From Ruditapes philippinarum (Eukaryota), in the NCBI RefSeq assembly GCF_026571515.1, contig NW_026865682.1, positions 124,001-188,000 on the forward strand: 64,000 nucleotides of DNA, written 5' to 3'. How positions within the stretch are numbered: position 1 is the first letter of the stretch; each line of letters begins with the position of its first letter. The notes beneath the pieces were generated by a model. That model made no database searches, was not told where the DNA came from, and worked only from the letters and a program-made list of their open reading frames with translations. Of the stretch, positions 1 through 41,036 are shown piece by piece. Position numbers and translations under genes: made by a program.

Positions 1-199
1 ACGAAGGCCTTTGTTTGTTGACAATTTTTTCAGTATAACTTGGATTGAAAATAATATTTTTAGCTGGATTTTTGCTATTAGATGAAAGTCTAGTTGCATA
101 TTGAAGTGATAGCTTTTTTCGACGTAGATGAAGTGATGGTTCCCCAGCTTCCGAATATAGACTTTCTACAGGTGAGGTGCGAAAAGCACATAAAGCTAA

Positions 200-807
200 T
201 CGTAAACCCTGGTGATGTATGGTATCTAGCATTTTGAGTTATGATTTTCTTGCAGACCTATATACTACAGAACCATAATCTAATTTTGATCGGATAAGAC
301 TTCTGTATAATTTCAATAGTGTGGAAGAATTTGATACCTCAATTTGTACTTGATAAAACTTTAAGTAAATTTAAAGCTTTTAGACATTTCGTTGAACCGT
401 TGTATATAATGTGGACTTCAAATCGAAAAGATATGAATCGAAAACACTAGATCCCCAACCATTTCGTTCCACTCTTACCAACAGAAGCTGACGAACTTCA
501 TAAAGAGAACAAACAAAAACACGATCCTGGAGAGGAGGAAGAGCCGGGTGTTACAGTGTACGTTTATAAGAATGCGAAAGGAATTTACGAACTTCGTTTA
601 GAGGACAGGCTTATTGGGACGATAGATAAAAAATCCGAGACCGAGAAAGATGAAGGTATCGAGAGAAAGACATGTTTCACAGAAGAAACAGACAGGTCAG
701 CCAGAAACCACGCAGCAACTAAATTGAAAGACGACGGTACTGATACTTCTCCTGACAGTATCACGCAAAGTACAGGACAAGCAGACGGTGCTCAAACTCC
801 TGATTAG
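200..807 (+). pseudogene. Decayed vertnin-like / OTU-type protease domain C-terminal part plus acidic tail, probably transposon-borne
   Basis: Frame 1 from 391 reads VEPLYIMWTSNRKDMNRKH*IPNHFVPLLPTE (TAG at 448 where W is expected). This matches the IMWT...W-x-PNHFVPL motif of vertnin-like OTU-fold proteins. The same frame continues into track ORF 556-807. The upstream part has stops and frameshifts. Confidence 0.6.
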
Positions 808-1080
808 ATTTTATAGGTAGATTATGACATTGAGCAACGTTTTGACAAGGCATCAGAGACAAGACACTTATCTTCAACCGCCGATGACAAAACAAAGATA
901 GAAACCGCAAACACAAAATTAATAACGTCGACGTCACAGTTCTAACATCGACACCTAGAAACATCCGTCTTAGAACAGAAGAGACCGTCATAGAGTAATT
1001 TAAAACTAGATCACCTAAAGGACTTAACCCGATGCATAATTGAAATCGAAATAACAGATAAGAAAAATTATTCATAGCAA

Positions 1081-1660
1081 ATACCGGCACCTGCAGACTT
1101 CTTCAAAGTTACATCGAATAATTAACAACAATGCTTAAAATGCAAATAATTCATCAAGGGCTCTAAATTTAACTTAAACAGACACTACAAAATACACAAG
1201 AAAATGATTACGATGTTTATATGTTTCTACTGCGATCGAGAATATACAAGTAGGGGCAACCTGAAAACGCATTGCCGTAAAATACACGGTATGGAAATGA
1301 GAAGATACAAAACCAAAACAGAGAACAGAATAACGATCAAAGACGAAATGAACCCGTAAAACCATGGAAACAAGCTTTTGAATGTACTCTAGTCAAGAAA
1401 TCAACAACCATACATACATTTAGAATTGTTCAAGAACAAAAACAATGGCTAGCCAAAAGGTTAACATCGGAATTCAATTGTACGCAAATGATAAATGAAA
1501 TGACAGTCACCATTACCTCTGTCTCCATTTCGATCCAACCGACACAAGACATCTCAGACAGTACTAGCTATGTAAGAGTATGCCAAGATGAAAACGATGA
1601 TTTTGTCTACACAAAATACCGGGACATAAAGATCCACTCGATCTATGGTATTTTTAAATA
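1081..1660 (+). pseudogene. Decayed two-finger C2H2 zinc-finger ORF
   Basis: Frame 1, 1132-1287: CLKCK*FIKGSKFNLNRHYKIH then CFYCDREYTSRGNLKTHCRKIH (C-x2-C...H-x3/4-H). After a frameshift near 1360 it continues KPWKQAFE...TFRIVQ...IHSIYGIFK* to ~1660. In-frame stops at 1123 and 1147. Confidence 0.75.
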
Positions 1661-1832
1661 ACTAAAAATGACTCCACCATAACTTTAACATTTATTATTA
1701 TTTTATAAATACACATTCAAAACTATTTACAGGGAAAAGAACCATCTGAACAATAATTTCTAAAAATAGATTTTCACGTGACACAAAGAACCGTCAAAAC
1801 TATACCTTAGTAGCATTTTCTGATATATCTGT

Positions 1833-1869
1833 ACCCTGATGAAGGCTATTGAATAGCCGAAACGTAGGT
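1833..1869 (+). ncRNA. Minimal type I hammerhead ribozyme (Penelope-like-element pLTR type)
   Basis: ACC(1833-35) CTGATGA(1836-42) A GGCTA-TTGAA-TAGCC (stem II, 1844-58) GAAA(1859-62) CG TA, then GGT(1867-69). The core CUGANGA...GAAA...UH is intact, ACC/GGT forms the short stem I, and stem III is the palindromic ACGT. AATAAA follows at ~1874. This is the known layout of PLE minimal hammerheads. Confidence 0.8.
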
Positions 1870-2212
1870 CTTTAATAAAATTACAGTAACCTGACCCACT
1901 TTGTTTCGTGTGTTTCTCTTCCCTTATTCATTTTATTAAGTTATTTTTTAGTAAAACGAAACCGCGTCAGAACGACTGGAATTTTGAAGACGACTTCAGT
2001 TTTCTTTTCTTTAATAGGTTTGCTCCATTAAAATAGTTATGAATATTTATAATCGGTTTTCAACATAATCATGCATGCTTTTTCTTGCTAATCCATTGCA
2101 AACTTCAAAGTACGATTGATTGAAATAAAAAGAAATCTATTTCATTAGTAAGAGTCACCCTTAAAGTATAATAAAAGATATTCAAAATAAAAGAAAAATT
2201 CAAAAATCTTGT

Positions 2213-2258
2213 TTATTCTTAATCACGGAAAGAAATTATTCTTAATCACGGAAAGAAA
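2213..2258. repeat. 23-bp tandem duplication
   Basis: TTATTCTTAATCACGGAAAGAAA x2. Confidence 0.9.
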
Positions 2259-3479
2259 TCGAAGAGTTTAGAAACAAAATATGATATTTTACGAGAAATC
2301 GAAAACTAGAACTGGAAAAGCAAAGGAATATCAAATTCCAAAAAGCCGCGTCCTGTGAACGTTGCCTTTGCCTTGTTGATTTTTGTTCTTTTTTTTGTGT
2401 CTAAAACGAAATCACAAATGACGAATTTTTCTTAATCAAATGTTCTTCAAAATGGAAGACGATGATAAACAATAAGTTCGCTATATGTAAATCTGTTCGA
2501 TATAAAATTTCCTGATACTAGAAACTTATTCGCTATATGCTTACAAAGAACTCCGGATAAAAGAAACATATTTTGAATGCCACAATTAGTTGTTATAAGC
2601 GGAGATTACAGTACTACTTTTTTAAATTCTATTAATTATTTTATAAAAAAATTATTTCTAACAAAAATTAACAATTTGTTTTTCAGTTACGGGCAACGAA
2701 ATTTTGAGATTTCGTCTAAAGCCTATCGGTTTGACTGCATGGCTAAAATCTCGGGAAATCCGAATCATAATAAAGGCGAAACATATACGATGGTAATCAG
2801 AACTACATGTAAGACGTAAGTAGATCTGAACTCTAATCAGATTGGCGGTATCTTGCATCAATCAGTCGAAACAAAGAAACTTAAGATGGAAGTTTCACAA
2901 GATAATACTTAAGAACTAAATTTATCAACTGGAAGTATGTTACTTGTACTTTAAAAAGCAAGAACGATAACCGTCCATATTTCTTTCAAATATTTGATAG
3001 AAAAGTATTATAAACATACTAAGGCCTTATATATTTTTTAGGGGAACCTGCTTTCCAGGAATAGGTCAGGTAGGTCGGTTTCTTATTTATTCAAAATTTG
3101 ATCATTAAATGCCGAGAAATGTTCATGCCCTGTTTTTTTTACAGATGTGGTGAACGGGGTACGTAATCAAAGTGCTAAAAGCACTGGATGCGCCGGTCAA
3201 GGAAAGAGAATTGCATAAATGTTGTTGAAAAAGAACCAAACATCAGTCATGTTGCATCAAGAAATTTATAAATTCACGAAGGGCAGTAAAATTCTATGCC
3301 AGAATTTTGTTATATTTTCGATCCTTGAAGATCGTTCAGCACGACATTATTGTTGTGTATACATATCATGTTGTATTTTCAGTCTCTTGTCTTTTTAACT
3401 TGGGTGGTTCTAGTATCAGTTTTAGTTTCGCCAATTGTTTTCTCGTTTAGGGCACACACATTCTTTTACTTGGGGACCA

Positions 3480-4680
3480 TGTGCCGCTTTTCATGGAATG
3501 GCACTAATGTGTCACATTGAATGTTCCATGATGACCGCCGTATGAACATATCTGCGGAGTTTTCTAAATTTCGCCATTTTTGTGTTTAAATGTTAAATTC
3601 CGCTTAAGCCGGTGCTAGGGGTGGGGGCCTGAACGGTACTGCATTTTCAAGTACCGTCCATGAACAGGCTCAATCAAACCGAGTCTGCAACATTTTCAAT
3701 TTTGTCGTGTTGTGTTTTCTTTGGGGATTCTAATTTTCTTTATTTTATTAAAGCTGACACATAAGAGGGACACTACTACATTTGTTTGTACTATGCAAAC
3801 AGTTTAAAGTTCAAAGCTTAAGTGTATTCACCTGTGTTTTCCCAGGGAGAACAGACAATGAAGCAGCTGAATAATGCAGCCTTTAACAAACTTAGGCATT
3901 TGTTCAGAAATGCACACTTTATAGCAAAGACAGACCGTACACAGATTAGGTCAATATCTGTCAATTCGATAGAGCCAAAGGACTCACACTACAGATAAGT
4001 ACTGTGAAAAATTTGTGCAAGTGTTAATGCAAGTTTTTCTCTATTTTAAAATAGAAAAATACGGAATCCCTAAAGAAAGCCCAACACGACAAAATTGAAA
4101 ATGTTGCAGGCTCGGTTTGATTGAGCCTGTTCATGGACGGTACTGGAAAGTGCAAGTTACCGTCCACGCCCCCTAGCACCGGCTTAAGCAGAATTCAAAC
4201 ACGAAAATTGGTGAAATTTTAAAGTTGCTTAATTTCTAGGTTAAACGCGTATGTTTAAATACTGTACTTGCCGCTCTTTCAAAAGTCCACAACTGGAATT
4301 TTCTCTAATTATCGCACGTCATATTTTGTAATTGTTCAGGAATTATGTGCGCCATTGAAAGTTTCATGATCACCGTCGGATGACCACATCTGTGGATGTT
4401 TCTTAATTAAAAAATTCACCATTACGTGTTATAATGTTGAATACGGATTAAGCCGGTTCTAGGGGGCGTGACAGTAGCTTGCACTTACATTACAATCCAA
4501 GAACAGGCTGAATTAAACCGACCCTGCAATATTTCCAATTTTGCCGATTAGGACCTTTTTCAGAATTCTATTTCTTCTCTATATCATAACTAAAATAGAG
4601 AATACAGAATCCCTAAAGAACGCCCAACACGACAAAAGTGAAAATGTTGCAGGCTTGGTTTAATTGAGCCTGTTCATGGA
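3480..4680. repeat. Foldback-like cluster of a dispersed ~140-250 bp repeat in alternating orientation
   Basis: TTAAGCCGGTGCTAGGGG...CAGGCTCAATCAAACCGAG...CAACATTTTCAATTTTGTCGTGTT at ~3605-3740 (+), reverse complement at ~4048-4190, again (+) at ~4445-4585 and (-) at ~4590-4680. Confidence 0.85.
3846..4025 (+). pseudogene. hAT-superfamily (ZNF862-like) transposase fragment
   Basis: Translates GEQTMKQLNNAAFNKLRHLFRNAHFIAKTDR / TD*VNICQFDRAKGL. This resembles the LFRNAH..AK..RP..D....C..D..KG segment of ZNF862-like hAT transposases. Contains a frameshift and a stop. Confidence 0.65.
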
Positions 4681-4684
4681 AAGT

Positions 4685-5470
4685 CATGCATATCAAACTC
4701 ACATTGACCTTGACTCATATATTGTCTTGGCTTTTAAGGTTAAAATATTGAATTTCAAATTATTTTGTCAAAAATTAATTATAACAAGTTGGTAATTGAA
4801 AAATAATTCATCTTCATTCTTGGACAAAACAACCTTCGGACAAAACATTCTAAAAAGGTTGAAACTGATAGTGACCTTGACTGTCAAGGTCAATTATTTG
4901 AATTGTATGTTTTAATTGCCATAATTTTGTTCTTTATATACATGACTTGCTACTAAACAAACATATTGAATACTTTAAATGTGACCTTTAATTGACCTTG
5001 ACCGGTAAGGTCAAATTAATGAAATTCTCTTGTTGCCTTTTTGTAACTGGGTATAACTTTGTTCTTTATAAATGGATAAACTTCATATTTAGAAATAACA
5101 ATTTTAGGTCAGGACCTTCATGTATATAAATCTCAAACTGACATTGACTCATGCATGACCTTGACCTTTAAAGTCATATTGAATTTTCACTAATAATTGC
5201 TATAATTGGCCGTAATATGGTTATTAATCAATGGATTATCTTCATTCTTGGACAGAACAAACGGACGGACAAGAAATTGTAAAAGGTTGAACTGACATTG
5301 ACCTTTATATGAAATTAATAATGAAGGGCAATTAAAAAATTTAGGTTAGTTGCCATAATTTTGTTATTTATTCGAGGATATAACTCATCTGTGGACAAAA
5401 CAACACTTGTGACCAAACAGATATGTTACATTATTAAGATATTACGTTAACCTTAAATGGCATTGTCACA
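4685..5470. repeat. Degenerate repeats with recurring TGACCTTGA motif (old HINE/pearl-type internal array)
   Basis: TGACCTT(G/T)A recurs at ~4706, 4872, 4993, 5156 and 5299, with similar flanks (ATCTTCATTCTTGGACA.AACAA at ~4811 and ~5238). Confidence 0.55.
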
Positions 5471-7699
5471 AAATCAATTATATTTTATCTATTTTTAAAT
5501 ATAATCTCTTATAAACCTTTTTCTAGGGATAGACAGTTATAATACTGACCAGTCTAAATAGTTTTCTTCATACCTGAGTGATCACTTACCTGTATTAGTT
5601 AGCTGGCCAATGTGTTTAAAAAGTACTGTATCTTTAGTTCATATAGGTAACACTCAGTCAGTTTTTTTTTTCAGTTTTATGAAGAATAATGATGTTAGAG
5701 CTTAGCAGAATTCATTATTTAAATTTAATGATAATGGTGTTCATTTCATAAAGCCATTTAAATGACAAGCTTTATTGAACAGTGCCTGTTTACCTAGATA
5801 TCAGGGTCATGGTGTTGAAGGACATATCAATGTCAAGAGCGTGCGTGGTGCTATGGTTGTATTAACGTTGAATATCATGCAGTATTTTGTATTATGCAGA
5901 GAGTTGGTCAACATCAATTTAACATCTACGCAGAATCCTTAACTTTTATTTTGCTGTTCGACATTGTCCATCGTTGGTAGGAGGTGACATTTCGTAGTTA
6001 TATATTTACCTTTATAGGTCGGAGGTAACATTTTTTATTATGACCTTACATGGTCGGTGTGAATGACTTTCAAAATTAGTGTGAATATTGACCTTTTTAA
6101 GGTCGGAGCAGTTGATAACTTCGTGTGGCATTTTACAAAGTGTTTTAGACGGCAAAATAAACTGTTAAGTGGAAAGAACGATAGAGGCAATATATGTGTT
6201 TTGATCTATTTTTCTAAGAATATTCTATAGTGACAATACTTCAAATTTCTTTTAACTCTTTAGTAAACTTAAAATTTCATAACTATCAAACAAGTATTTT
6301 TCTATTTGATAAAATTATATAATTTTAGTAAATGTATTGAATTTTGTTGTATAAATTAATGTGTATATACATGTAAAAGGTATTTTGTGTAAAATAGTTA
6401 TTTTGATGATAGATCTTCCCATTCTGGCCATCTCTGACTTGTGACAGGCATTGACATCAAGGTCAGATGATTGAATTTGGCTTTGTTTCCAGAATTTTAT
6501 ATTGCCTTTACTTTGTCATTTACTTATGAAAATGTTTAAATATTTATTTAGACAAAAATTAGACGTACAAATAATTATAAAAAAACAAGGGAACAATTGT
6601 TTTCTTTAACTTTCTTCTTAAAGATTTATTTAAACCGTTTATTTGTTTGTTATTATAGCAAGTTAACAAAGAAAAGGTCTTGACAAGCGACGCCTCGCCT
6701 TGCGATGGTTTTTGTTAGGCCAAATTATTAGCAACGTGTCAGTGTCGCTGTTAAGCCTAAACAAACAAACAAATAAACTTCAAATGAACTGTTTAAAATC
6801 AAAACAGACCTAATTTAGCGCGTTAAGTCTTTTTGATAACGTTAGAGAGGACAGAGTCATTAAGTGGTTACAATGTTTGCCTAGCAATGAAGCTTAAGTC
6901 AATTTATATTGTTTCTTTAGAATCTTAAATAATTGTTTTCGCTTTAATTAATATATAAACTGAAAGAGTTTTTTTTTGTCAGTTTTTGTGATTTTGTTTT
7001 AGTGATTCCCCTTAACCCTTTCCGTTGGAATATTTTCTAATTTAGTGCATTTTGTTCTTTTTTTAAAAAATGTCAGCCGTTGTGTAAATGGAAGTGGTTT
7101 CATTTAAACACAATGTGTTCTAGATAAGTTTTAAAATTTGATTTTAGGGTTTTAATATTAAAAAAATACCCTCCCCCACCCCCATCATTTTTACATTGAG
7201 TTTAAAATTCTGCTATTTTATTCAACATACTTTTTAACTGTGTTGGTTTAATTCATGGGGAGGGGGGGGGATTCCCCAAAATTAAAGGGGGAAAAAAAAA
7301 GAACTTCAAATAGCTAAAAAAAATTTTGTATTTTTACTTTGCATAGTTTTTTATTTTTCTCAAAAAGAACCATTGGCCTTTAAAAAATAAAAATATTTTT
7401 TGGCCCCATAAAAAAAAAAATTTTGGCCAATTTATCTTCGCAGTTGATCCAAACCCTTAACGGCTTTGTTAGCAAGGGTGGGGCCCAACGGGGAAACCCA
7501 ATGTTTTTTGTATTAATTTTTTTTCAATTTTGGAATAACCTGGTTTTGACAATGTCACATATAGAAATTGGTTTTTTAAAATTTTTTTATAGCGTTATCA
7601 ATGTATAGTATAGTTGATAATAATCTTTTACAGATGCGTTGATTATATATTGAAATGACTATTGAATACTACAAACCGTTTATAAGTAATTATCTCACC

Positions 7700-7802
7700 G
7701 ATTCAGTAGAAAAGGCATTTATTAGTTATTTTTCAGTATACCTTAGTGGCATTTTATGAAGCTCTAGTGGGTGAGGTGAAACTCATCTTCGGAAAGGTAG
7801 GA
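7700..7802 (+). promoter_or_regulatory. Putative core promoter / non-coding first exon of receptor 1, splice donor after 7796
   Basis: CTCATCTTCGGAAAG|GTAGGA is identical in both paralogs (GT at 7797 and 19871) while the flanks diverge. Inr-like TCAGT at ~7733. Confidence 0.5.
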
Positions 7803-8639
7803 ATTTCTTACTTTTTGTTTGTGTTTTTCGGTTAATTTAATGTTTCTTTTATGAGCATTTCCAATTCTCTGAATTATGTTTCATGCCAGTTTGCTTGACT
7901 GTGATTTTTGTAAACAAATATATGAAAAGTTGGACTGACATAGTGGTCATTTTCCTGAAAATATTAAAAAATTTAACAAGTATTTGAACTTGTTAAGATG
8001 GTGCGTTATTATGCGTTTTTCTCTGAAGTATTATCCATCCTATATCCGTTTTGTCATATAGCTTATTATATAAAAATAAATAACTCGGAATTTTTATCTT
8101 AGACAACGTCTTATTTACATTCATCTTTTAACATAAGCAGCAATTCAATCTATTAACAAAGTCTTGCCACTGACTAGACAATATTGCATTATCTAGATGC
8201 CATTCATGTCCGGCCAAAAATCATAACTGTTCAAATAATGATTTTATGCTTTGTTACCATACTCGATGAAATATATTATTCGCCGTTACCTCGGTTGGAC
8301 TTGAATGTACAATGTTGGATTAACCATTCGATCATTTCTTTTTTGCATTGTAAACCCATTTCTTTGTTAGAAGAAATTAATTTTGATTACGATTTTATAT
8401 AGTGTTTTTTTTTGTAAACCACTTTCTATCAAAATAAATAAAAACAAGAAAGAATCTGGTTGACAAGGTAGCACTGTCTTGTTCCCATATATTTGTCTTT
8501 GATAGTGCTATTTTTTAGCCTTTTTGGGTTATTTTCACAATCAAAACTTTTTGAACAAGAAATTAGGTGTTTCGTTTTGTGCCATAGCTTCTTCACATTG
8601 GCGACATCCTAATATAAACCTTAAATGCCAAAGAAGCGA

Positions 8640-9320: not shown

Positions 9321-10122
9321 AAAGAAGAATTCACGAATTTCATATGTTTTAGTTTTGATATCAAAAGTACAACAATAGGAAGAAATACAACAATAGGAAG
9401 AAATACAGAGTTAAAAAGCGCTTTTTTTGGTAATTTGACAATATTATGAGAAACTTTAAAAAAAAATTATTTAACTACATTAGTAATGCGGACAGCTACT
9501 AAACATTATATTCATTTACAAAAATGATACTATTGGTATATACCTACAATTCTAAGATGTCAAAAATTCAACTTACTACATGGTTATCATATATTATAAT
9601 TTATTTAGTCTTTATATTATTGGACCGCATCTTTACTTTTTTGTTTATGAACTTTTTAGGTATTATGTGAACGGACAAGAACGGACTCTAATGTCATTGG
9701 CGAGATAGTTAGCAAATTTACCTTCGGCGTTTGCAGTCTGAATTCAATACATCAACATCGTTTATGAAGACAATTTACGTCTTTGAATGTAGCTATAATA
9801 TGGATTTGACTGGAAATAAGTTATTCATTCGTGATATAAGCTGTATGGCACATCGGAAAATTGGAAAATTCATAGCATTCTAACGTTTGCAAATTGTGTA
9901 CTTTTCTTTTGTACATTTCGTTATAGATGACATGATAATTTAAGTTGAGTATTTTCTATTAGCTGTGTAGCTTTAAACTTTACAAACGGACATTAAAGAA
10001 CCAAAGGTAATGATTGGGTTATTATTTTTAACCAAATAGCAGGAAAACACTGTTATGAAATGCTTTCATTTTTTAAAAATACCGTCTGATTATTGTACAA
10101 GATTTGTTTAAAAAAACTACTG

Positions 10123-11103
10123 ATGATGAGTAACAACAGTACTGTATCTGATGTCATGTTGAATAATACTATTTTAAATGATATAAATTTAAACGATGAC
10201 TCATTAATAATACGACTGAGTGTTATTAGCTGTTCAGCACTTTACTTGGTGTTTGTTTGCATTGTTATCTTTGCAATGCTGAAAACCAAACGCATTCCTA
10301 ATATAGCAAGATTTCTTTCAATAGTGTTGTTGCAATCCTATGCCGCTATATCATTTATAAATATAGCTAGGCGAATAATCAACTATGAAAATCAAGTGTT
10401 TGTTAGTGTAACAGTATATGGAGTAGGACTCCGAATGGTTAGTTACATAGTTATTGCGATGCTATTATTTGATAGGGCTGTTGTCATTCAGTCCCCATTC
10501 TTCTACAGTCGTCATTGCCAAAGGTCAGTAAGAATCAAGTTTATTGCTATCGGCATGTGTTGTATGGTGTTCGTGGGATTTGTATCAGGAATGACTTGGA
10601 GCTGCAACCTTACTTCATCAATTAGCGTTTACAGAAAGCTCACATGCTTCAAAACTTTATCCCCTCCATTTATTGGCCCTATACTTGGTGCAACAATTCC
10701 TATCACATGTATTTGCTTATCAACTATTTGGAGGGTTGTTTTTCGACAGTCAAGAACTCTTAAAACTAAAAGTATCGTCAAGATATTCAAAACAACATTT
10801 GCAATATCACTAAATGGTGTAAGTTTCCTCATTTACGTGGTGCTGTACGTCATTTCAGTGGCTACAGTTGATTCAATTCAGATAGTGTTGTTTATATTTG
10901 AAGTGCTTTTTACCATTGCCGCTTTAACAGATACTTTCATTTTTGCACTTTGTTTTAAGGAATGTCGCTTAGAACTGTTAAAGATAGTGTCGATGTGTTT
11001 TCCGACGCTTAATCAAAGAACTGAGAACCTTAGATATAACGTTTTCAACATTCAAATTTCGGAAAATAAGGTTCGAAAGCAAAAAATCAAGTCATTTACG
11101 TGA
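10123..11103 (+). CDS. Orphan seven-transmembrane receptor (divergent rhodopsin-like GPCR), 326 aa, single coding exon
   Basis: N-terminal N-glycosylation sequons (NNS, NST, NNT), seven hydrophobic segments, DRA at the DRY position followed by xxIQSPFFY, two Cys in ECL2, DTFIF at the NPxxY position, helix-8-like FKECRLELLK. Start set at ATG 10123 because the paralog starts at the same MMSNNS and has the same length. Confidence 0.88.
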   Translation: MMSNNSTVSDVMLNNTILNDINLNDDSLIIRLSVISCSALYLVFVCIVIFAMLKTKRIPNIARFLSIVLLQSYAAISFINIARRIINYENQVFVSVTVYGVGLRMVSYIVIAMLLFDRAVVIQSPFFYSRHCQRSVRIKFIAIGMCCMVFVGFVSGMTWSCNLTSSISVYRKLTCFKTLSPPFIGPILGATIPITCICLSTIWRVVFRQSRTLKTKSIVKIFKTTFAISLNGVSFLIYVVLYVISVATVDSIQIVLFIFEVLFTIAALTDTFIFALCFKECRLELLKIVSMCFPTLNQRTENLRYNVFNIQISENKVRKQKIKSFT

Positions 11104-15751: not shown

Positions 15752-17718
15752 TTTTTAGCTCACCTGAGCATGCTCAGGGTGAGCTTTTAGGATCGATGAT
15801 TGTCCGTCGTCCTTCGTCCGTCCGTCGTCCGTCGTCCGTCCGTCCGTTCACATTTTGTTGTTAACACTCTAGCGGTCGCATTTTTGCCTCAATCATCATC
15901 AAACTTAGTCAGGATGCTTATCTAGTTGATAGCTCGGATGAGTTTGAACATGGGTGATCTCGGATGAAAAACTAGGTCAAAAGAGCTAAAAATAGAAAAA
16001 CCTTGTTAACACTCTAGAGGTCACATTTTTGCCTCAATCATCATCAAACTTGGTCTGGATGTTTGTCTGGGTAATAGCTCGGATGAGTTCGAACATGGGT
16101 CATCTCGGATGAAAAAGTAGGTCACCGGAGCTATAAATAGAAAAACCTTGTTAACACTCCAGCGGTCACATTTTTGCCTCAATCATCATCAAACTTGGTC
16201 AAGATGCTTGTCTAGTTGATAGCTAGGATGAGTTCGAACAGGGGTCATCTCGGATGAAAAACTAGGTCACCGGAGCTAAAAATAGAAAAACCTTGTTAAC
16301 ACTCTAACGGTCACAATTTTGCCTCAAACATCATCATACTTTGTCATGATGTTTGTCTAGGTGATAGCTTGGATGAGATCGAACATGGGTCATCTCGGAT
16401 GAAAAACTAGGTCACCGGAGCTAAAAATAGAAAAACCTTGTTAACACTCTAGCGGTCACATTTTGGCATCAATCATCATCAAATTTTGTCAGGAAGCTTG
16501 TCTAGGTGATAGCTCGGATGAGTTCGAACATGGGTCATCTCGGATGAAAAAGTAGGTCACTGGAGCTAAAAATAGAAAAACCTTGTTAACACTCTAGCGG
16601 TCACATTTTTGCACCAATCATCATCAAACTTAGTCAATATGCTTGTCTAGGTGATAGCTTGGATGAGTTCGAACATGGGTCATCTCGAATGAAAAAGTAG
16701 GTCACCGGAGCTAAAAATAGAAAAACTTTGTAAACACACTAGCGGTCACATTTTTGCCTCAATCATCATCAAACTTGGTCAGGATGCTTGTCTAGGTGAT
16801 AGCTTGCATGAGTTCAAACATGGGTCATCTCGGATGAAAAACTAGGTCACCGGAGCTAAAAATAGAAAAACCTTGTTAACACTCCAGCGGTCACATTTTT
16901 GCCTCAATCATCATCAAACTTGGTCAGGATGCTTATCTATTTGATAGCTCGGATGAGATCGAACATGGGTCATTTCGGATGAAAAACTAGGTCACAAGAG
17001 TTAAAAATAGAAAAACCTTGTTAACACTCTAGCGGTCACAATTTTGCCTCAATCATCATCAAACTTGGTCAGGATGTTTGTCTAGTTGATAGCTTGAATG
17101 AGTTTGAACATTGGTCATCTCGGATGAAAATCTAGGTCACAGGAGCTAAAAATAGAAAAATCTTGTTAACACTCTAGTGGCTACTGTTTTGATCCAAATA
17201 TCCTGTAAATTGGTCTGAAAGTTTGTTTTGATGATTTCTAAGTCAAGTTCGAACATGGGTCATTTTGGATGAAAAACTAGGTCACACCGTCCAAATATTG
17301 AAAAACCTTGTTAACATTCTAGTGGTCACATTTTCGACTCAATTATCATCAAACTTGGTCAGGATGCTTGTCTAGGTAATTGCTCGGATGAGTTCGAAAT
17401 CGCATGTGAAACTAGGTCACCGGAGCTAAAAATAGAAAAATCTTGTTAACACTCTAGTTGCTACTGTTTTGATCCAAGTATCCTGGAAATTGGTCTGAAA
17501 GTTTGTTTTGATGCTTTCTAGGTAAAGTTTGAATATGGGTCACCTGGGTAAAAAACTAGGTCACACTGCTCAAATATAGATAATCCTTGTTAACACTGTA
17601 GTGGTCACATTTTTGACTCACCTGTCATGAGACTTGGTCAGAATGCTTGTCTAGATAATTGTTTGGATGAGTTTGATGGATCAGGTGAGCGATCTAGGGC
17701 CATCATGTCCCTCTTGTT
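15752..17718 (+). mobile_element. HINE/pearl-type (Helentron-derived) element carrying a 145-bp tandem array (~12.6 units)
   Basis: 5' T-run plus palindrome AGCTCACCTGAGCATGCTCAGGGTGAGCT; (GTCC/CGTC)n microsatellite at ~15800-15847; units starting at 15861, 16006, 16151 ... ~17590; 3' subterminal inverted repeat TCAGGTGAGC (17681-90), hairpin AGGGCCATCATGTCCCT, CTTGTT end. Confidence 0.9.
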
Positions 17719-19774
17719 TATTTACATACTGATAAACTTTTACTGTTATTAGGAATATGAGAAAAGCAAATGAAAAACAATAAAGTAAGCAATTTCACTC
17801 ACAAACAATGACGTGTTATAACTACCGTCAATTAAAACTATTTGAAGCGAAATGCCATTTTATTTATTTTAGCACACAGTTAATCTCAAAATTCGGTTGA
17901 TATTCTGTCGTTTTTAAAACATTGCAATGTAGTGACTTGATATGATAAGACTGGGCAAATACCGTTCAATCGAATATCTAAAATACCAATATGCGCCGTA
18001 GGGAAACGGGAACGATGAAGGATCTGTATATTCAAACTGAAAATTGTATTCGCCTTTGACCCCCGTGCGTATACAAGTAAACAAAATAAGAAGATAAGAT
18101 CACAGTACTAGTGTCTTTAATTCGCAAAGAACTGATAAATTTTGTTCATGTCAGAGCAGAGATATAGTGCTAATTACCATTGAAAGGATTTCATGATTAA
18201 TCATAAAAAAGTGACATACGGTTGCGAGAAAAATGTAAATAATACCTTAGCCATATATGATTACGGTTACAAGATTAAGCAACATGATTTACGCCCATAC
18301 TCTTTAAGAACTTATAGTACTCTTTAAAACAAGAAATGTTCTTGTTTTTAAAGTTTTGCATTATGTCGGCAATGGATTCGGGACAATTTTCAACAGAGAC
18401 TTACCGTAGAGAAATAAAAAAAATGCCATAGATCATATTTTAAAGAATTGAGACAATTCAATTGCAAAAAGGGGTTTTAGGGGAACACGTAGCAGAATGT
18501 AATTAAGTCATACTTTTATATGTTTTATTTCAATAACAAATGGTATTTTTCAAAGTTTAAACTAACTGATTGCTTAAAGAAAGTTAACTTAAATTATAAC
18601 ATTGTTATAACTCACATGTAGCAACGCATTTAAGGCCTACTTACTATAATAGTGTTTGGCAAAACATCAGTGCCACCGTTAAACACAAACAAACAAAATG
18701 AACAGCGAATGAACTTTTAAAAGTCAAACAGGCTTATTTTCAGTGATTTTATATTTTTCTGGTCCTTCGGAATCAATGATTTCAGCTCTTTAAAGTGTTG
18801 CAAAGAATGAGTACCGCTCAATCCAGTTCTAGGAGGCGTGATTTTGCATGTTTCAATTATGCTTCATGTAAAGACTCAATCAAACCGAGTTTGTAATTTT
18901 ACTGAATTTAACTAATGCTTCCGAGGGATAAACCTTTCTTCAGATATTAATCCATTTGACAAATTTAGCAGGTCAATGCTTTAGACTTTAGATGACTATA
19001 GAGAATGCAGAGTTGTTAAGTGATAACAATGTCTGACTGCAACTACATATTGGAAAAAAAACAAAAGAAACACCACTCTGTTTAGCTAAAGTCGCTTAGT
19101 AGTATCTTTGTTTCCGAAAAGACTTTAATAATTGTTTTTGCTGAATAATATTTAGAGCAAAGTGTTTTATGTTTGTCTGGTTTTCCGATTTTATCACAAA
19201 TATTCCCTATTACCTTTATATATTGCATTTTGTTCCAATGAAACATTAATTAAGAATGTTATTTCTTTAAAACAATTTGCTTTAGATAGTTATACTTAAA
19301 TATGTAAGAGAAGATGCCCCCACCTTTACCCTTAATAATGATGTGATTAAAAATTACTGTAACATTTATTTTATTCTACCTGTGCAAGTGCCATATGATC
19401 TGGATTCATACAATTTGGATCCATATTTTACCTGATTATTTTACTCTTCACGAAATAATACCATTAATTTAGCAGGCAATAATTTAAAAATTATGCATCT
19501 AAAAGGGATCGAATGTGTTTCCCTTTTACAGATGTATGCAGTCATCAATTATTTGGTCTTATGTCGGCGGTTGATCCACCTAACTGACTGACCTCTTTGG
19601 ATAATAACATTTACTTCGCAAATGTCCCGGTAAACCTACATGTAAATTAAAATGTTATAAAACCTGGGTAACAATATATGGTGCTATCAATGTAACGTAT
19701 AGTTGATAATAACATGTTACAGATGTGTTGATTATGTACTGAAATGACCATTGAATACTAATTATCGTGTATTA

Positions 19775-19876
19775 GTTATTATAGAAAGGACAATTATAAG
19801 TAAACTCCGATTATACCTCAAGCGTATTCGCTGAAGTTCTTACGGTCATGTGAAGCTCATCTTCGGAAAGGTAGGA
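19775..19876 (+). promoter_or_regulatory. Putative core promoter / non-coding first exon of receptor 2, splice donor after 19870
   Basis: TATA-like TTATAGAAAG at ~19779; CTCATCTTCGGAAAG|GTAGGA shared with the paralog. Confidence 0.5.
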
Positions 19877-21237
19877 TTTTTTGTGTTTCTTTTTTCGTAT
19901 ATTTTTACCTTTCTTATAGCATTTCCAATTCGGAGACTTGTTTTTGCATGCTTGTTTCTTTCACTAAAATATATTGATATTTGGACTACTCGTATATGGC
20001 ATTAATTTGCCTTGACAAACATTTCTTCCATTACGATCACTTGTTTAGATGATGCGGTATTATTTTTATTATTTTTATTGTAATTGATATAAAAATAGAT
20101 ACTTCTAAATTTATTTCTAATGCAACGTGCTGTTTACATGAAGCTATTAACATTAGCTGCAATTCAGTCTACTAGTATATAAACATTTACATTCTAAAAC
20201 AAAATATTATCACTGACAAGACAATGCTACAGAATCTAGATGCAATTCGCCTAGAATCAGAACTGTTCAAATTATAAGTTGATGTATCGCGACCATGTTC
20301 AATGAAACATGCTAATCGCCCTTACCTAAGTTGGTCTCGAAACTACAGTTTTGTATATATTTTCACAAAACATAATCACTCGATCACTTTTTCAATTAAT
20401 TGGACTTGCATCTCTACGTTGGAAGACATTTATTTTAATTCAGATATGTATATATAAGTGTCGCTTATGTAAACAATATACCCGTTTTTTGTCAATTGAT
20501 GATTTTTTTTACAACTTAGTAATACCTAGCGACTCGGGTACACTAGATTATCAATAGTTTATAAAAAGTCATATAACTTAAGTTCGCTTATTTATTTGTG
20601 AATCGGTGGTATGAAAGTTCCTCCATAATCAATTTGTTATTAAATTGGAGTTCTGAAAGGGACAGAAAAAATCGACATGGTAATTATAGGAAATATTGTT
20701 TTAAATAAGACGTTTAGTTATTGCAATGCATCTTTAATTTTTGTTTGTTCATGATCTTTTAGCATGCGAACAGACAAGAATGGGCTCTAAAGTCATTGGC
20801 GAAGTGGTTAGCAAACCTGCCTTCGGCATTTACAATCCAAACTCGATTCATCAACATGGCTTATCAGGTCAGTTGACGTCTTCGGAGGAAGCTATAATAC
20901 AAGTTAACTTGAAAACCGTGATATAAGCTGCACGGAAGATCAAAAAATTCTATTTAATAGTATTCACTGGCATTATGTTTGTAGTAATCGCACTTAAGAA
21001 AATGGTGTTTCTTTCCTTTCTACATTTCGGTGATAAGTGATAGGAGGATTTAAGTTTGGTGTGTATATACTTTTAGCTGATTAGCTTTCAATAACGGTAC
21101 AAACGGACATTATGGAACATTGACGATTTGGTTATTTCTTTTTAAACAAAAATTGGAAAATACTGTTATGCAATGTTTCCTTTTTTGTAAAATTAATTTA
21201 TCCAATTATTGTATTAGAGTAATTAGTAAAATAATTC

Positions 21238-22218
21238 ATGATGAGTAACAACAGTAGTGTATCTGACGTCATGTTGAATAGTACTAATTTAAATTATATA
21301 GATTTTAAAGATGACTCATTGATAATAAGACTGAGTGTTATCAGTTGTTCAGCACTTTATTTGTTGTTTGCTTGCATTGTAATCTTTGCAATGCTGAAAA
21401 CCAAACGTATTCCTTATATGGCAAGATTTCTTTCAATAGTGTTGTTGCAATCCTATGCCGCTATGTCATTTATAAATATAGCTAGGAGAATAATCAACTA
21501 TGAAAATCAAGTGTTTGTTAGTGTAACAGTATATGGAGTAGGACTCCGAATGGTAAGTTACGTAGTTATCGCCATTCTGTTAGTTGATAGGGCTATTGTT
21601 ATACAGTTCCCATTCTTCTACATACGTCATTGCCAAAGGTTAGTAAGGATGAAATTCATTGTTATTTTCATTTGCTTTGTGGTGTTCGTAGGATTTGTAT
21701 CAGGCATGATTTGGAGCTGCAACCTTTCTTCACCAATAAACGTTTACCAGAAGTTCACATGCTTTAAAGAATTATCACCTCCATTTATTGGTCCTATACT
21801 TGGAGCAACAGTACCTATCACATGTATTTGTTTATCAACTATTTGGAGAGTTGTCTGTCAAAAGTCAAGAACTCTTAAAACCAAAAGTATCTTCAGGTTA
21901 TTCAAAACAACATTTGCTATATCACTAAATGGTGTAAGTTTCCTAATCTACGTTGTGTTTTATGTCATTGCAGTGGCTACAATTGACTCAATGCAGCTTA
22001 TGCTGTTTATTTTTGAAGTGATTGTTACCATTGCCGCTGTGACAGACACTTTCATTTTTGCACTTTGTTTTAAGGAATGTCGCTTAGAACTGTTAAAGAT
22101 AGCGTCGGTGTGTTTCCCCAAGGTTTATCAAAGAGCAGAGAGCCTTAGGTATACCGTGTTCAACATTCAAATTGCGGATAATGTGGTTCGAAAGCACAAA
22201 CACAAGTCGTTTAAATGA
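21238..22218 (+). CDS. Orphan seven-transmembrane receptor paralog 2, 326 aa
   Basis: Ungapped ~81% aa identity to 10123-11103, with the same 7TM pattern (DRAIVIQFPFFY, DTFIF, FKECRLELLK). The reading frame is intact while the flanks carry many indels. Confidence 0.88.
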   Translation: MMSNNSSVSDVMLNSTNLNYIDFKDDSLIIRLSVISCSALYLLFACIVIFAMLKTKRIPYMARFLSIVLLQSYAAMSFINIARRIINYENQVFVSVTVYGVGLRMVSYVVIAILLVDRAIVIQFPFFYIRHCQRLVRMKFIVIFICFVVFVGFVSGMIWSCNLSSPINVYQKFTCFKELSPPFIGPILGATVPITCICLSTIWRVVCQKSRTLKTKSIFRLFKTTFAISLNGVSFLIYVVFYVIAVATIDSMQLMLFIFEVIVTIAAVTDTFIFALCFKECRLELLKIASVCFPKVYQRAESLRYTVFNIQIADNVVRKHKHKSFK

Positions 22219-36961: not shown

Positions 36962-38740
36962 TATAGCGACACCTATAGATAAAACACATAGTTCTGACAT
37001 TTCAAGTTTGTCTTACCTTAAAGGATTAAAATTGGCACATCCAGTAACGCATGATAAAGAGTTCTCTATTTCTTTACTACTCGGAGCCGACTTTTAGTGG
37101 GATATTGTTGAGGACGAGATTATACGTGGCACAGGGCCTTCTGCCGTAAAGTCGAAAATCGGATACTTTCTGGTTGGACCGATCAATTCAAGTAAAAGTA
37201 GCAGAACAGATTTTAATCGTGATGGTGTCTCACAGACCACAGGACATATCGATAGAACGCTTCTGGAGTCTAGAAAATCTAGGAATTACACCAAATGACA
37301 CAGACCGGAAGTTACAAGACGAAAGACAACAGTATCAGCTGACGTCAATTGAATTCAAAGATGGAAAGTATACTGCACGGTTAACAATGGAAAAGTGACC
37401 ACCAAGAACTAGTTAAAATTATGATATTGTCGTGAAACGCACTGAAAGTACTGTCCGAAGATTGAGCAGAGAACCCGATATGCTAAGAAAATATGGAGAT
37501 ATCATTGCAGAACAAGAGAGGCAAGGGTTCATTGAAAGAATTCAAGAGAAAGAGATACAGATGAAAAAGCCCACCCAAACATTCCACATCGCCCTATTTA
37601 GACAAATTCCTCAACTACGCCTATAAAAAATTGTATACGACTGTAGTTGCCGTAAAACGCCTCAACATACCATCCTGAATGATTGCCTACAGTCAACAGC
37701 CCCAGTCTTAAATGAACTAACCTCAATTCTGCTGAGATTTCGTCTGCATGCGTATGCTGTTACAACAGATATTGAAAAGGCGTTTTTGCAGGTGGGATTA
37801 CATACAGATGACCGAGATATGACAAGATTCTATGGCTGAAAGATCTGAATGACCCCAACAGTGACTTTTCAACTTATCATTTTAAAGTTGTGCTTTTTGA
37901 TGCAACTTGTGCACCATTCATACTCAACTTAACGATACTAAAACATTTAGACAACAATCCACATACAACGGTATCAGAAATATGTCGAGATTTATGTAGT
38001 CGATAACGTCATATCCAGTTTCAAAGAAGAAGAAGAGTGCCTTAATTACTTTAAAGAAGCACCCACCTTGATGTCCAAAGCCGGAATGAATTTGAGATCT
38101 TGGAACTCCAACAGCAAAAAAAAATTACAACAAGAAGCCAGCAAATTAAATATATTAGATACTGACGACGTCAAGAAAGTCCTAAGTCTACGTTGGGAGC
38201 CGTCAACAGATATAGTGACCTATGTGAAGAGAAATATCCATGTTTCTTCTCATGTAACAAAGAAAGTGATATTGAAATATTCATCTCAGATATACGACAC
38301 CCTTGGAATACTATGCCCAGTTACCGTCCGAGCCAAACTTCTGTTACAAGACATTCGGAAACAAAAGTACGAGTGGGATGTACCACTTCCGGAAGATATT
38401 CATCAGTCATGGTCAAGCCTAGCGAAAGACTGGAACACTGTAGCCACATTTAAATTCCCGAGAAGATATTTTTCTGACACAGCCGAAACCGGAAACGACA
38501 GACGGACAACCTTGCACATCTTCGTGGATGCAAGTATTAGATCGTATGGTGCAACGGCGTTCATTTGTAACGGAAAAGATTCAACTCTGGTGATGGCAAA
38601 CAATCGCGTGGCACCGCTCAAACCTTTAACTCTGTTCAAAGTTGAACTCATGGCGGCGCTGATTGGAGCTAGACTAGCAAAATATTTGCAGACCACATTT
38701 CCTACAGCAGACATCACACTGTGGTCCGATAGTCAAATTG

Positions 38741-38920
38741 TACTTTATTGGCTATCTACGAAAAAGACACTGAAAAGATTCATCGAGAATCGTGTAAAGG
38801 AGATATATGACCTTACGAGCCAATACGTTTATTACTTTATTGGCTATCTACGAAAAAGACACTGAAAAGATTCATCGAGAATCGTGTAAAAGAGATATAT
38901 GACCTTACGAGCCAATACGT
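38741..38920 (+). repeat. 88-bp tandem duplication inside the Pao RNase H region
   Basis: 38741-38828 and 38833-38920 differ at one base, with a TTAT spacer. The 92-bp offset shifts the frame. Confidence 0.9.
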
Positions 38921-40034
38921 ATGGAAATATTGTCCAACAAGCCAAAATCCAGCCGATTTACTGACAAGATGTATAACAGCTGACAAATTCATGAAGAACG
39001 ATCTTTGGATAAAAGGACCAATATGGTTATGTGACAAGACAAAATGGCCGATATGGGAGCTCTCAAACAGGTTAAACCTGCAGACGATAATTGAAGAGCA
39101 AGCCACCGGAAGTCAGCAAGCAGAGATAGACGAGCAAATGATATCTGAAGTTACACATAACGTACCCAATAATAACATACGTAATATTATTGACATTAAG
39201 AAATATAGCAATCTAAGTCGGTTACTTCGCGTTACAGCTTATATTCGCCGATTTATTTAAAACTGCAAGGTCGACCAGTAGAGACGAAACTTCGACCATC
39301 TCTCTACTAGTAAACTTCATCTAGCAGAACAGCGATGAATACATTATTGTCAAGCATATGTATACAGTACAGAGATACGTGAATTAGAGAGAAACCAGGT
39401 CAAAACACCATTAATAAAGCAGCTTTGATTATTTCTTGACCAGACCGGATGTATCCGCTGCGGCGGAAGACTTAACAATGCACCTGTGGATGACGTCACA
39501 AAGTACCCGTACCTCCTTCCAAAGAAGTCTAAACATACTAAATTGATAGTACGCAATGCCCATGAGTTACTCGGCCATAGTGGTTTAAATGCTACAGTTA
39601 CCAGCATTAAACGTCATTTTGGGTACCAGCGATGCGACAATGCGTAAACGCCGTAATCCGAAACTGTGTCACATGCCGTAAAGTGCACGGACTTCCATAC
39701 AAGTCACCGGAAGTCCCCTCATTGCCGAAATTTAGAGTAGAAGAAGTCCCACCCTTCAGCATTACTGAAGTAAATTTTACTGGTACAATATATATTAAAG
39801 AACCCTCTGCACACTGGCCATAGCTTTCGCAGAAGCGGTGGGTCTTCGCAGAAGCGGTGGATAAAATATGGCCGTTTGTCGTTTTCGGTAAGTATATGAC
39901 TGAATTTTGTTTTATGTTTAAATGTTTTACTGGAAACACTCAATGAGACTGGAGTCCACATATGTACTCTTTCAACCTATTACACGGGCACGGTGCAATT
40001 CATTGTCGTTTATGCAAACAATTCTGTATCGTTT

Positions 40035-40820
40035 ATCTCTTTTTGAGTGCCATATAAATTCAAAACAATTTTGTGTAATTGTTTTTATAATTTCTTCCGG
40101 TGGACTCGGAAAAACAGATATTATTAAGGTAAGTTTTGAAATAATTAAGGATTTTAAAATTGATATATTGCCAATTGTTGTTAAATGTCTTGCTCTCCAT
40201 CTATTAATGTCTGCTTTAAATTGGTTTAATTTATTCTCGTAATTGATTTTGGTTATTAAGTCACAATTTGAATGGAAAGTTATGCCTAATGTTTTTGCAC
40301 ATTCTGAGGTCCAAATTATATTTGAATATTTTTTTCTACAAAAGATTAAATCATGTTGATTTCTAAGTGAACCTATTCTGAGAACTGTACATTTTTTGTA
40401 ATTAAGTTTAAGACCAGAAATAAAGGAAAATTGTTCAAATATGTTCAAAGTTTCTTCAAAGCTGCTTGATTTACCATTTAATATTATAGTTGCATCGTCT
40501 GCAAACATGCTATTTTTAACTTCTACATCAAAAATTTTAAAACCTTCAATATTCCTATTTTGTCTTATAGCTATTGACAATAGTTCAATTGCTAGGATAA
40601 ATATATATGGAGACAATGGACATCCTTGTCGTACTCCTCTTTTTATAGAGAATGAATCAGACAAAAAACCATTGTAAAGTATGCAACTCATGGGTCTTTT
40701 GTAAATAAGTTCAATCCATGCTTTTAAATTTGGTCCAAAGTTAAAAAGATCTAATGTTTTAAATACGTATTTGTAGCTTATGCTATCGAATGCTTTTTCA
40801 AAATCAGCAAAAAATAATTT
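40035..40820 (-). mobile_element. L1/Tx1-clade LINE reverse transcriptase fragment
   Basis: One open frame: FADFEKAFDSIS..FNFGPN..WI..RGVRQGCPLSPYIFILAIELL..SMFADD..SGLKLNYKK..IWHSKRDK (includes most of track ORF 39972-40691). Confidence 0.92.
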
Positions 40821-41036
40821 TAAAAAACTTTAGAATTGCTTACTGGAAATAGTTCAAAACTACACTTATTCATTTAAATAATCTACGAAATGAATGTCCC
40901 GCGTTTACAGAGACTTTCAGATTTAAATGATGACCATTTTCTTATTAAATAATACATTTCTTTTAAATCAGATTCATACATTGATAACATACGTGCAATT
41001 TCATGTGCTATTTATTACTTTTCGCGGCCCCCAAAA

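Follow-up and report, generated by a model that had tools for sequence, protein, structure and literature searches.

The left end of the window, by which we mean the whole 64-kb stretch of DNA that was analysed, is read here, with moderate confidence, as the remains of three dead mobile elements, stacked by chance nesting in a mollusc-like genome. The first would be the 3′ part of a gene for a Sola2-type cut-and-paste transposase that carries an OTU domain C-terminally, the second an antisense LINE that has inserted into this domain, and the third the 3′ end of a non-autonomous unit mobilised by Penelope-like elements (PLEs), consisting of a zinc-finger gene, a spacer, a minimal hammerhead ribozyme and AATAAA. 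All coding parts of this copy are broken and the copy is dead; a nested remnant of this kind is in itself nothing unusual. Its relatives include bivalve proteins annotated as vertnin or as uncharacterised that, judging by their motifs, appear to be Sola2-type transposases in which the OTU catalytic motifs are kept.

An earlier note on this DNA had described three co-oriented parts, and these are present, all on the plus strand: the OTU words at 397-477, two C2H2 fingers, and the hammerhead with its AATAAA. The features to which the text refers are as follows.

1-392, minus strand: LINE-like reverse transcriptase gene fragment, C-terminal region (six-frame translation)
394-480, plus strand: vertnin-like OTU domain, C-terminal strands with the catalytic His (match to the relative P0005, matches to long relatives, fold of a relative)
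481-965, plus strand: low-complexity tail, belonging with the OTU end to one transposase-OTU gene (homology to the relative P0004, stop counts)
966-1044, no strand assigned: linker, outside the matches to both P0004 and the relative P0036
1045-1661, plus strand: remnant of a gene for a ~205-aa protein, with two C2H2 fingers followed by a C-terminal region of no recognised kind (homology to P0036)
1662-1832, plus strand: AT-rich non-coding spacer, 3′-UTR-like (no open frame)
1833-1869, plus strand: minimal type I hammerhead (motif scan and simulation)
1874-1879, plus strand: AATAAA, possible polyadenylation signal (read from the sequence)

The OTU end and its transposase relatives

The words PLYIMWTS...*IPNHFVPLL are read at 397-477 in frame +1, with the codon of the catalytic His at 460-462 and an in-frame stop at 448. 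The closest relative, P0005, is identical at 35/43 residues over 394-510, its homology beginning at nt 394 in the plus frame, which rules out the OTU motif being a chance antisense reading of the LINE. The stretch 394-480 is matched by 17 of 21 long relatives (described below), and a tblastn search of all 21 against the window gave matches only at 391-576. The half of the domain that holds the catalytic Cys is not present in the window copy. The OTU/vertnin-like identity that the earlier note had proposed for a protease ORF is supported by profile search, which led to relatives of which one is named Vertnin, and by the fold of a relative; the ORF itself is not there, only the last strands with the His being left.

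What lies to the left is the minus strand of a fragment that we take to be LINE-like, from the C-terminal part of the reverse transcriptase. It is 5′-truncated at ~393, carries a frameshift near 330 as well as stops, and runs off the start of the window; searches with 1-392 of Pfam, NCBIfam, PDB, plasmids and papers gave no LINE match. Since OTU homology begins at 394 and is preceded by this antisense LINE-like sequence, position 200, at which the earlier note had placed the start of the element, falls inside another element, 200-392 being part of the LINE-like fragment. No continuation of the LINE was seen by Pfam at 1870-4870 in six frames, and the LINE is thus more likely to be the later insertion. 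It would have inserted into the OTU domain at ~393 and removed the Cys half, which would then be expected on the far side of the LINE, outside the window in the upstream direction.

To the right, the OTU end passes into a low-complexity tail to which P0004 is 74% identical across 556-939. The tail runs in frame +1 to ~915 and then probably in frame +3 to ~965, as judged from stop counts (3 stops in frame +1 over 394-915, against 10.9 expected) and from the last residues of P0004, which score 32 against 928-960 in frame +3, a score equalled by 3/1962 other windows and 8/3000 shuffles. The stops per frame over 916-1044 (2, 9 and 2, against 2.8 expected) are uninformative. Frame +1 contains eight in-frame stops between 388 and 1356, and neither coding frame is intact. 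If there is a junction between two elements, it lies within 966-1044.

Relatives of the OTU end were collected with a query from 388-1122 (245 residues), which returned 11 proteins; ten cover the OTU end and none extends beyond query residue 181. A profile built from ten of the 11 then returned the 21 long relatives, whose lengths run from 991 to 1947 aa and whose names point to Dreissena, Mytilus, Ostrea and a symbiont MAG; one of those from Mytilus, P0022, is named Vertnin by UniRef. They are only 31-54% identical to P0005, so the layout of this subfamily may be a different one. The OTU lies downstream of a DDE-transposase motif in 17/21 (HGKG..D in 17, SDG...QY in 14 and DFSEN in nine of the 21), its Cys motif is kept in 19/21 and its His motif in all 21, and a YPG-type end motif is present in nine. 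Nine relatives show both motifs, and in all nine 81-83 residues separate the first catalytic Asp from the second, close to the spacing of 83 in the Sola2 profile, where conserved Asp stand at positions 32 and 115 (PMC5751038, supplement). The relatives also fit the consensus of that profile around these two Asp, in a comparison by eye with five parts of the profile; on this match by eye, the relatives compared would be Sola2-type transposases. They differ from Sola2 by the C-terminal OTU, and the window itself holds only the OTU end and the tail, with the transposase core and the terminal repeats falling outside it. Sola2 is on record in bivalves, with 14 curated families (PMC10294476).

In intact relatives a single intronless ORF encodes, in this order, a DDE transposase, the OTU and a variable tail. 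A scan of prokaryotic genomes with the OTU alignment yielded one locus (L001) of nine candidates, a 3367-bp internal piece with <300 nt after the domain, in which transposase and OTU form one ORF at the DNA level. L001 (1-3367) and another relative, P0015, are animal-type transposase genes inside bacterial MAG records (Sedimenticola and Ca. Thiodiazotropha), most likely host DNA in these assemblies. The Pfam OTU model barely detects the long relatives (3/21, E 0.006-0.015). The predicted model of the L001 domain (pLDDT 92) has OTUD1 as its best Foldseek match (E 2.5e-5) and OTUD3 as its best VIA match (Z 13.7, rmsd 3.1, 134 aligned), which confirms an OTU fold for the modelled domain. Atlas places P0007 beside OTU clusters.

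The other four long relatives (P0032-P0035) comprise one pogo-type DDE_1 protein, one Helitron protein and two proteins with SAP domains, which we take to be Zator-like. Here the OTU module stands at the C- or the N-terminus, and its presence on pogo-type, Helitron and SAP-bearing proteins suggests exchange between transposon superfamilies. The earlier note had regarded the OTU as accessory cargo of a PLE. Its relatives speak otherwise: 17/21 are fused to a transposase, and a C2H2 pair, a DD motif of reverse transcriptase type and a GIY-YIG pattern are each found in 0/21. At the protein level, the OTU thus occurs in contexts unrelated to the other two parts.

OTU domains on DNA transposons are already known from Ginger1 and Helitrons (PMC2836005, PMC9741609). 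The Ginger1 OTU has been proposed to protect the transposase or to tune repair (PMC2836005), and a similar role has been proposed for the deubiquitinase domains of Helitrons (PMC9741609). The present relatives are like both in that a mobile-element enzyme is fused to an OTU-like protease, C-terminally in Ginger1 as here, and differ in that the transposase belongs to another superfamily and the OTU is of a long, vertnin-like type. By analogy with these proposals, intact relatives would transpose by cut and paste, while their OTU probably deubiquitinates the transposase or repair proteins at the integration site. We found no description of a Sola2 transposase with an OTU in the literature searched, the original Sola paper, Repbase and Dfam lying outside its scope, and we regard the combination as a modestly new transposase variant; it extends the pattern of deubiquitinase-carrying DNA transposons and provides intact enzymes to assay.

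Vertnin (VRTN) is described in PMC10318531 as a recognised inactive OTU homologue that lacks the catalytic site. It shares the OTU-like papain fold with the relatives, one of which carries its name in UniRef, and by that description it stands in contrast to them, as their Cys and His motifs are largely kept. That bivalve proteins annotated as vertnin look like transposases suggests a possible transposon origin for vertnin.

The zinc-finger gene and the hammerhead

Finger 1, at 1132-1197, has the spacing C-x2-C-x13-H-x3-H and an in-frame stop at 1147; finger 2, at 1222-1287, has canonical spacing and a Pfam zf-C2H2 score (E 0.04) below the cut-off. The gene contains three stops and a frameshift near 1345, past which it continues to a stop at 1661. 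A query from 757-1356 returned two proteins among 19 candidates, and one intact relative, P0036 (209 aa), covers 1045-1655 of the window, its N-terminal 104 residues being 68% identical and its C-terminal 106 residues 55%. This protein has a start Met of its own and is without OTU and tail, and it supports the earlier claim that the zinc-finger ORF and the OTU frame are distinct. A single fused ORF from OTU to fingers is not supported, as the match to P0004 stops short of the point where P0036 begins with its Met; among 1139 candidates no long protein matched the whole read-through from OTU to fingers, which is weak evidence.

In Pfam, P0036 shows weak C2H2 similarity only, and its single-sequence model (pLDDT 36) is unusable. 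A scan of prokaryotic genomes for its DNA locus gave 15 pattern matches and no confirmed one; an Atlas search with the frame of 1281-1658 and searches of PDB sequences, NCBIfam and the phage and plasmid collections gave nothing informative, and no family name was found in the libraries searched. A weak match between P0036 and P0030 (E 0.031 among 32 sequences) was taken as chance.

The gene is followed by the spacer and then by a hammerhead in which stem I (1833-35 with 1867-69) has 3 bp, the core spans 1836-1866, an extra A at 1843 precedes a 6-bp stem II (1844-49 with 1853-58), and a palindromic ACGU at 1862-65 takes the place of stem III, with cleavage predicted after A1866. A minimal hammerhead with palindromic stem III followed by AATAAA was thus rightly recognised in the earlier note. 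The hallmarks of the minimal PLE hammerhead are present, namely the core, the extra base 9/10.1, G10.1-C11.1 and the palindromic stem III, and its site 3′ of an ORF is likewise as described for PLEs (PMC4209133). Stem I is typically 4-5 bp in PLEs and 2 bp in Drosophila virilis (PMC4209133), as against 3 bp here; the window copy is a single one (the only hammerhead found in the 64 kb by motif scan), and the ORF before it is the zinc-finger gene and not a reverse transcriptase-endonuclease. Most minimal hammerheads are reported to be single motifs, and a single motif did not cleave (PMC4209133); cleavage of the lone minimal hammerhead here is not expected. When two copies were cofolded, the minimum-energy form was not the active dimer.

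A rival view, which we consider highly improbable, takes the hammerhead for a motif that arose by chance or has no connection with the rest, and the zinc-finger gene for a fragment of another DNA element. The 3 pairs of stem I, the absence of an Rfam match at the gathering score and an unexceptional folding energy (z -1.5) are compatible with it, and a loose hammerhead descriptor gave 7 matches in 150 simulated 64-kb windows; against it, a strict descriptor gave none in the same 150, and of the four features that, according to the defining paper, turn up although the search does not ask for them, the three that can be checked on one copy are all present (PMC4209133).

Retrozymes are a further comparison: non-LTR retrozymes likewise bring a type I hammerhead into animal genomes (PMC7229834), whereas retrozymes are described as short, non-coding tandem repeats (PMC7229834; bioRxiv 10.64898/2026.07.22.740005) and the window motif is single, minimal and placed after a coding remnant, with no repeat of 1660-1960 in the window. 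By eye, the plus strand shows GTAGGT within the hammerhead, then CTGAC at 1891, then a pyrimidine tract that is followed by AG near 1940; 1864-1940 could be a 77-nt intron, recalling the 75-nt intron of the Penelope repeat (PMC8557442).

The earlier note had further placed here, as one of two possibilities, the 3′ end of a large PLE-type retroelement, and this is not supported, as no reverse transcriptase or endonuclease was matched by Pfam at 1870-4870 in six frames and an antisense LINE lies directly upstream. Directly 5′ of the hammerhead, 394-1830 consists of OTU tail and zinc-finger gene, with no reverse transcriptase, with or without GIY-YIG. The same observations bear on a reading in which everything from the OTU onwards is one hammerhead-terminated retroelement, Terminon-like or a non-autonomous PLE, with two captured pieces as cargo, a zinc-finger gene and the 3′ part of a Sola2-OTU gene; both would move through an RNA that ends at the ribozyme. 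We hold this decidedly unlikely. The order of ORF, ORF, spacer, hammerhead and AATAAA on one strand fits it, and the co-oriented ORFs that end at a 3′ hammerhead recall the Terminons of bdelloid rotifers, which bear diverse accessory ORFs in this position (PMC6431247); PLEs with extra domains, among them a Josephin-like protease motif, have also been described (PMC8557442); a search of the supplement of that paper gave no matches. Terminons, however, need a reverse transcriptase and telomeric repeats after the hammerhead, and the cargo listed for them is without OTU or C2H2 (PMC6431247). Besides the missing enzymes, the window shows no second hammerhead, the telomeric-repeat complements CCCTAA, ACACCC and TCACCC do not occur in 1867-2100 (where there are only single TAACC and CCCTTA words), and the relatives of the OTU are transposases. 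In the literature searched, with the original Terminon paper outside its scope, no hammerhead elements with OTU or C2H2 cargo were found.

One unit or several

Whether the transposase remnant and the zinc-finger gene belong together turns on the ~80 nt between them. Homology to the tail reaches ~965 and the gene begins at 1045; both lie on the plus strand and for the most part share a frame, and so short a gap leaves room for a link between the two. An A-rich strand bias runs unbroken over 400-1800, fading near 1800-1900, and decay is similar in the tail and the zinc-finger gene. Both observations count against nesting, as does the lack of any transposase sequence found to resume after the hammerhead.

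The short gap, the shared strand, the bias and the similar decay speak for a reading, unlikely in our judgement, in which one Sola2 DNA transposon subfamily carries both the transposase-OTU gene and the zinc-finger gene, as two ORFs or as one ORF with a frameshift. The zinc-finger protein would then bind DNA as an accessory factor, and the hammerhead would be a solo PLE remnant that arrived later or else a 3′ signal of the element itself. P0004 (74%) and P0036 (68%) are about equally diverged from the window, as this reading would have it, and no target-site duplication marks an insertion: the best candidate flanking the zinc-finger and hammerhead block is 8 nt long, and 156/300 random pairs equal it. 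Set against this, none of the 21 long relatives ends in C2H2 fingers and nine have the YPG-type end motif. No protein covering both tail and fingers was found in the searches, which is weak evidence in view of length limits and word seeding.

OTU tail, zinc-finger gene and ribozyme may also travel as one unit. A single mollusc mobile unit of Sola2 transposase-OTU, zinc-finger gene and 3′ minimal hammerhead, moving either as a DNA transposon with a transcript that ends at a PLE-type ribozyme or by PLE mobilisation, appears to us an unlikely form of that idea. Were the three parts one unit, DNA transposons would be linked to ribozyme-processed retroelements, and a PLE-mobilised unit that carries a DNA transposase together with its own deubiquitinase would be a class I/class II hybrid.

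In the nested stack that we favour, the third piece would have inserted where the transposase tail stops. Two hammerheads pairing through the palindromic stem III would cut its transcript, and a PLE reverse transcriptase would copy it in trans. The zinc-finger gene before a PLE-type hammerhead, for which one intact relative but no family name turned up in the libraries searched, may point to a non-autonomous PLE that has not yet been described.

Other features of the window

Beyond the left end, the Pfam searches covered 1870-4870 in six frames and, elsewhere, four of the nine other long ORFs of the window. Two paralogous ORFs on the plus strand, at 10090-11103 (337 aa) and 21235-22218 (327 aa), have hydrophobic segments and are GPCR-like by eye, with no Pfam match, and the DNA upstream of them is also duplicated (7588-7900 with 19677-19965, 71%). 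A stretch within this duplication was weighed as a second pseudo-LTR and not accepted: 1801-1823 matches the sequence at 7737 at 21/23 positions, which 7/200 simulated queries equal under strict gaps, while under lenient gaps the maxima of all 12 shuffled queries exceed its score; the match is borderline against chance. On the plus strand, 7737-7796 forms 60 nt between AG and GT, like a non-coding exon, and shares a GAAA.GTAGG word with the hammerhead region.

A MITE-like cluster of inverted and direct repeats occupies 3580-4700, with 108-nt arms at 3640-3747 and 4047-4154 (89%). A short peptide at 3845-3998, within it, resembles a piece of hAT transposase, with no Pfam match. Further along, a BEL/Pao retrotransposon remnant lies on the plus strand at 37951-39260 (Pfam Peptidase_A17, E 8.5e-39), followed on the minus strand at 39972-40829 by another fragment of a non-LTR reverse transcriptase, the second in the window (Pfam RVT_1, E 2e-21). 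Between the two GPCR-like ORFs, at ~17000-18300, there is a tandem array whose repeated unit is visible in translation.
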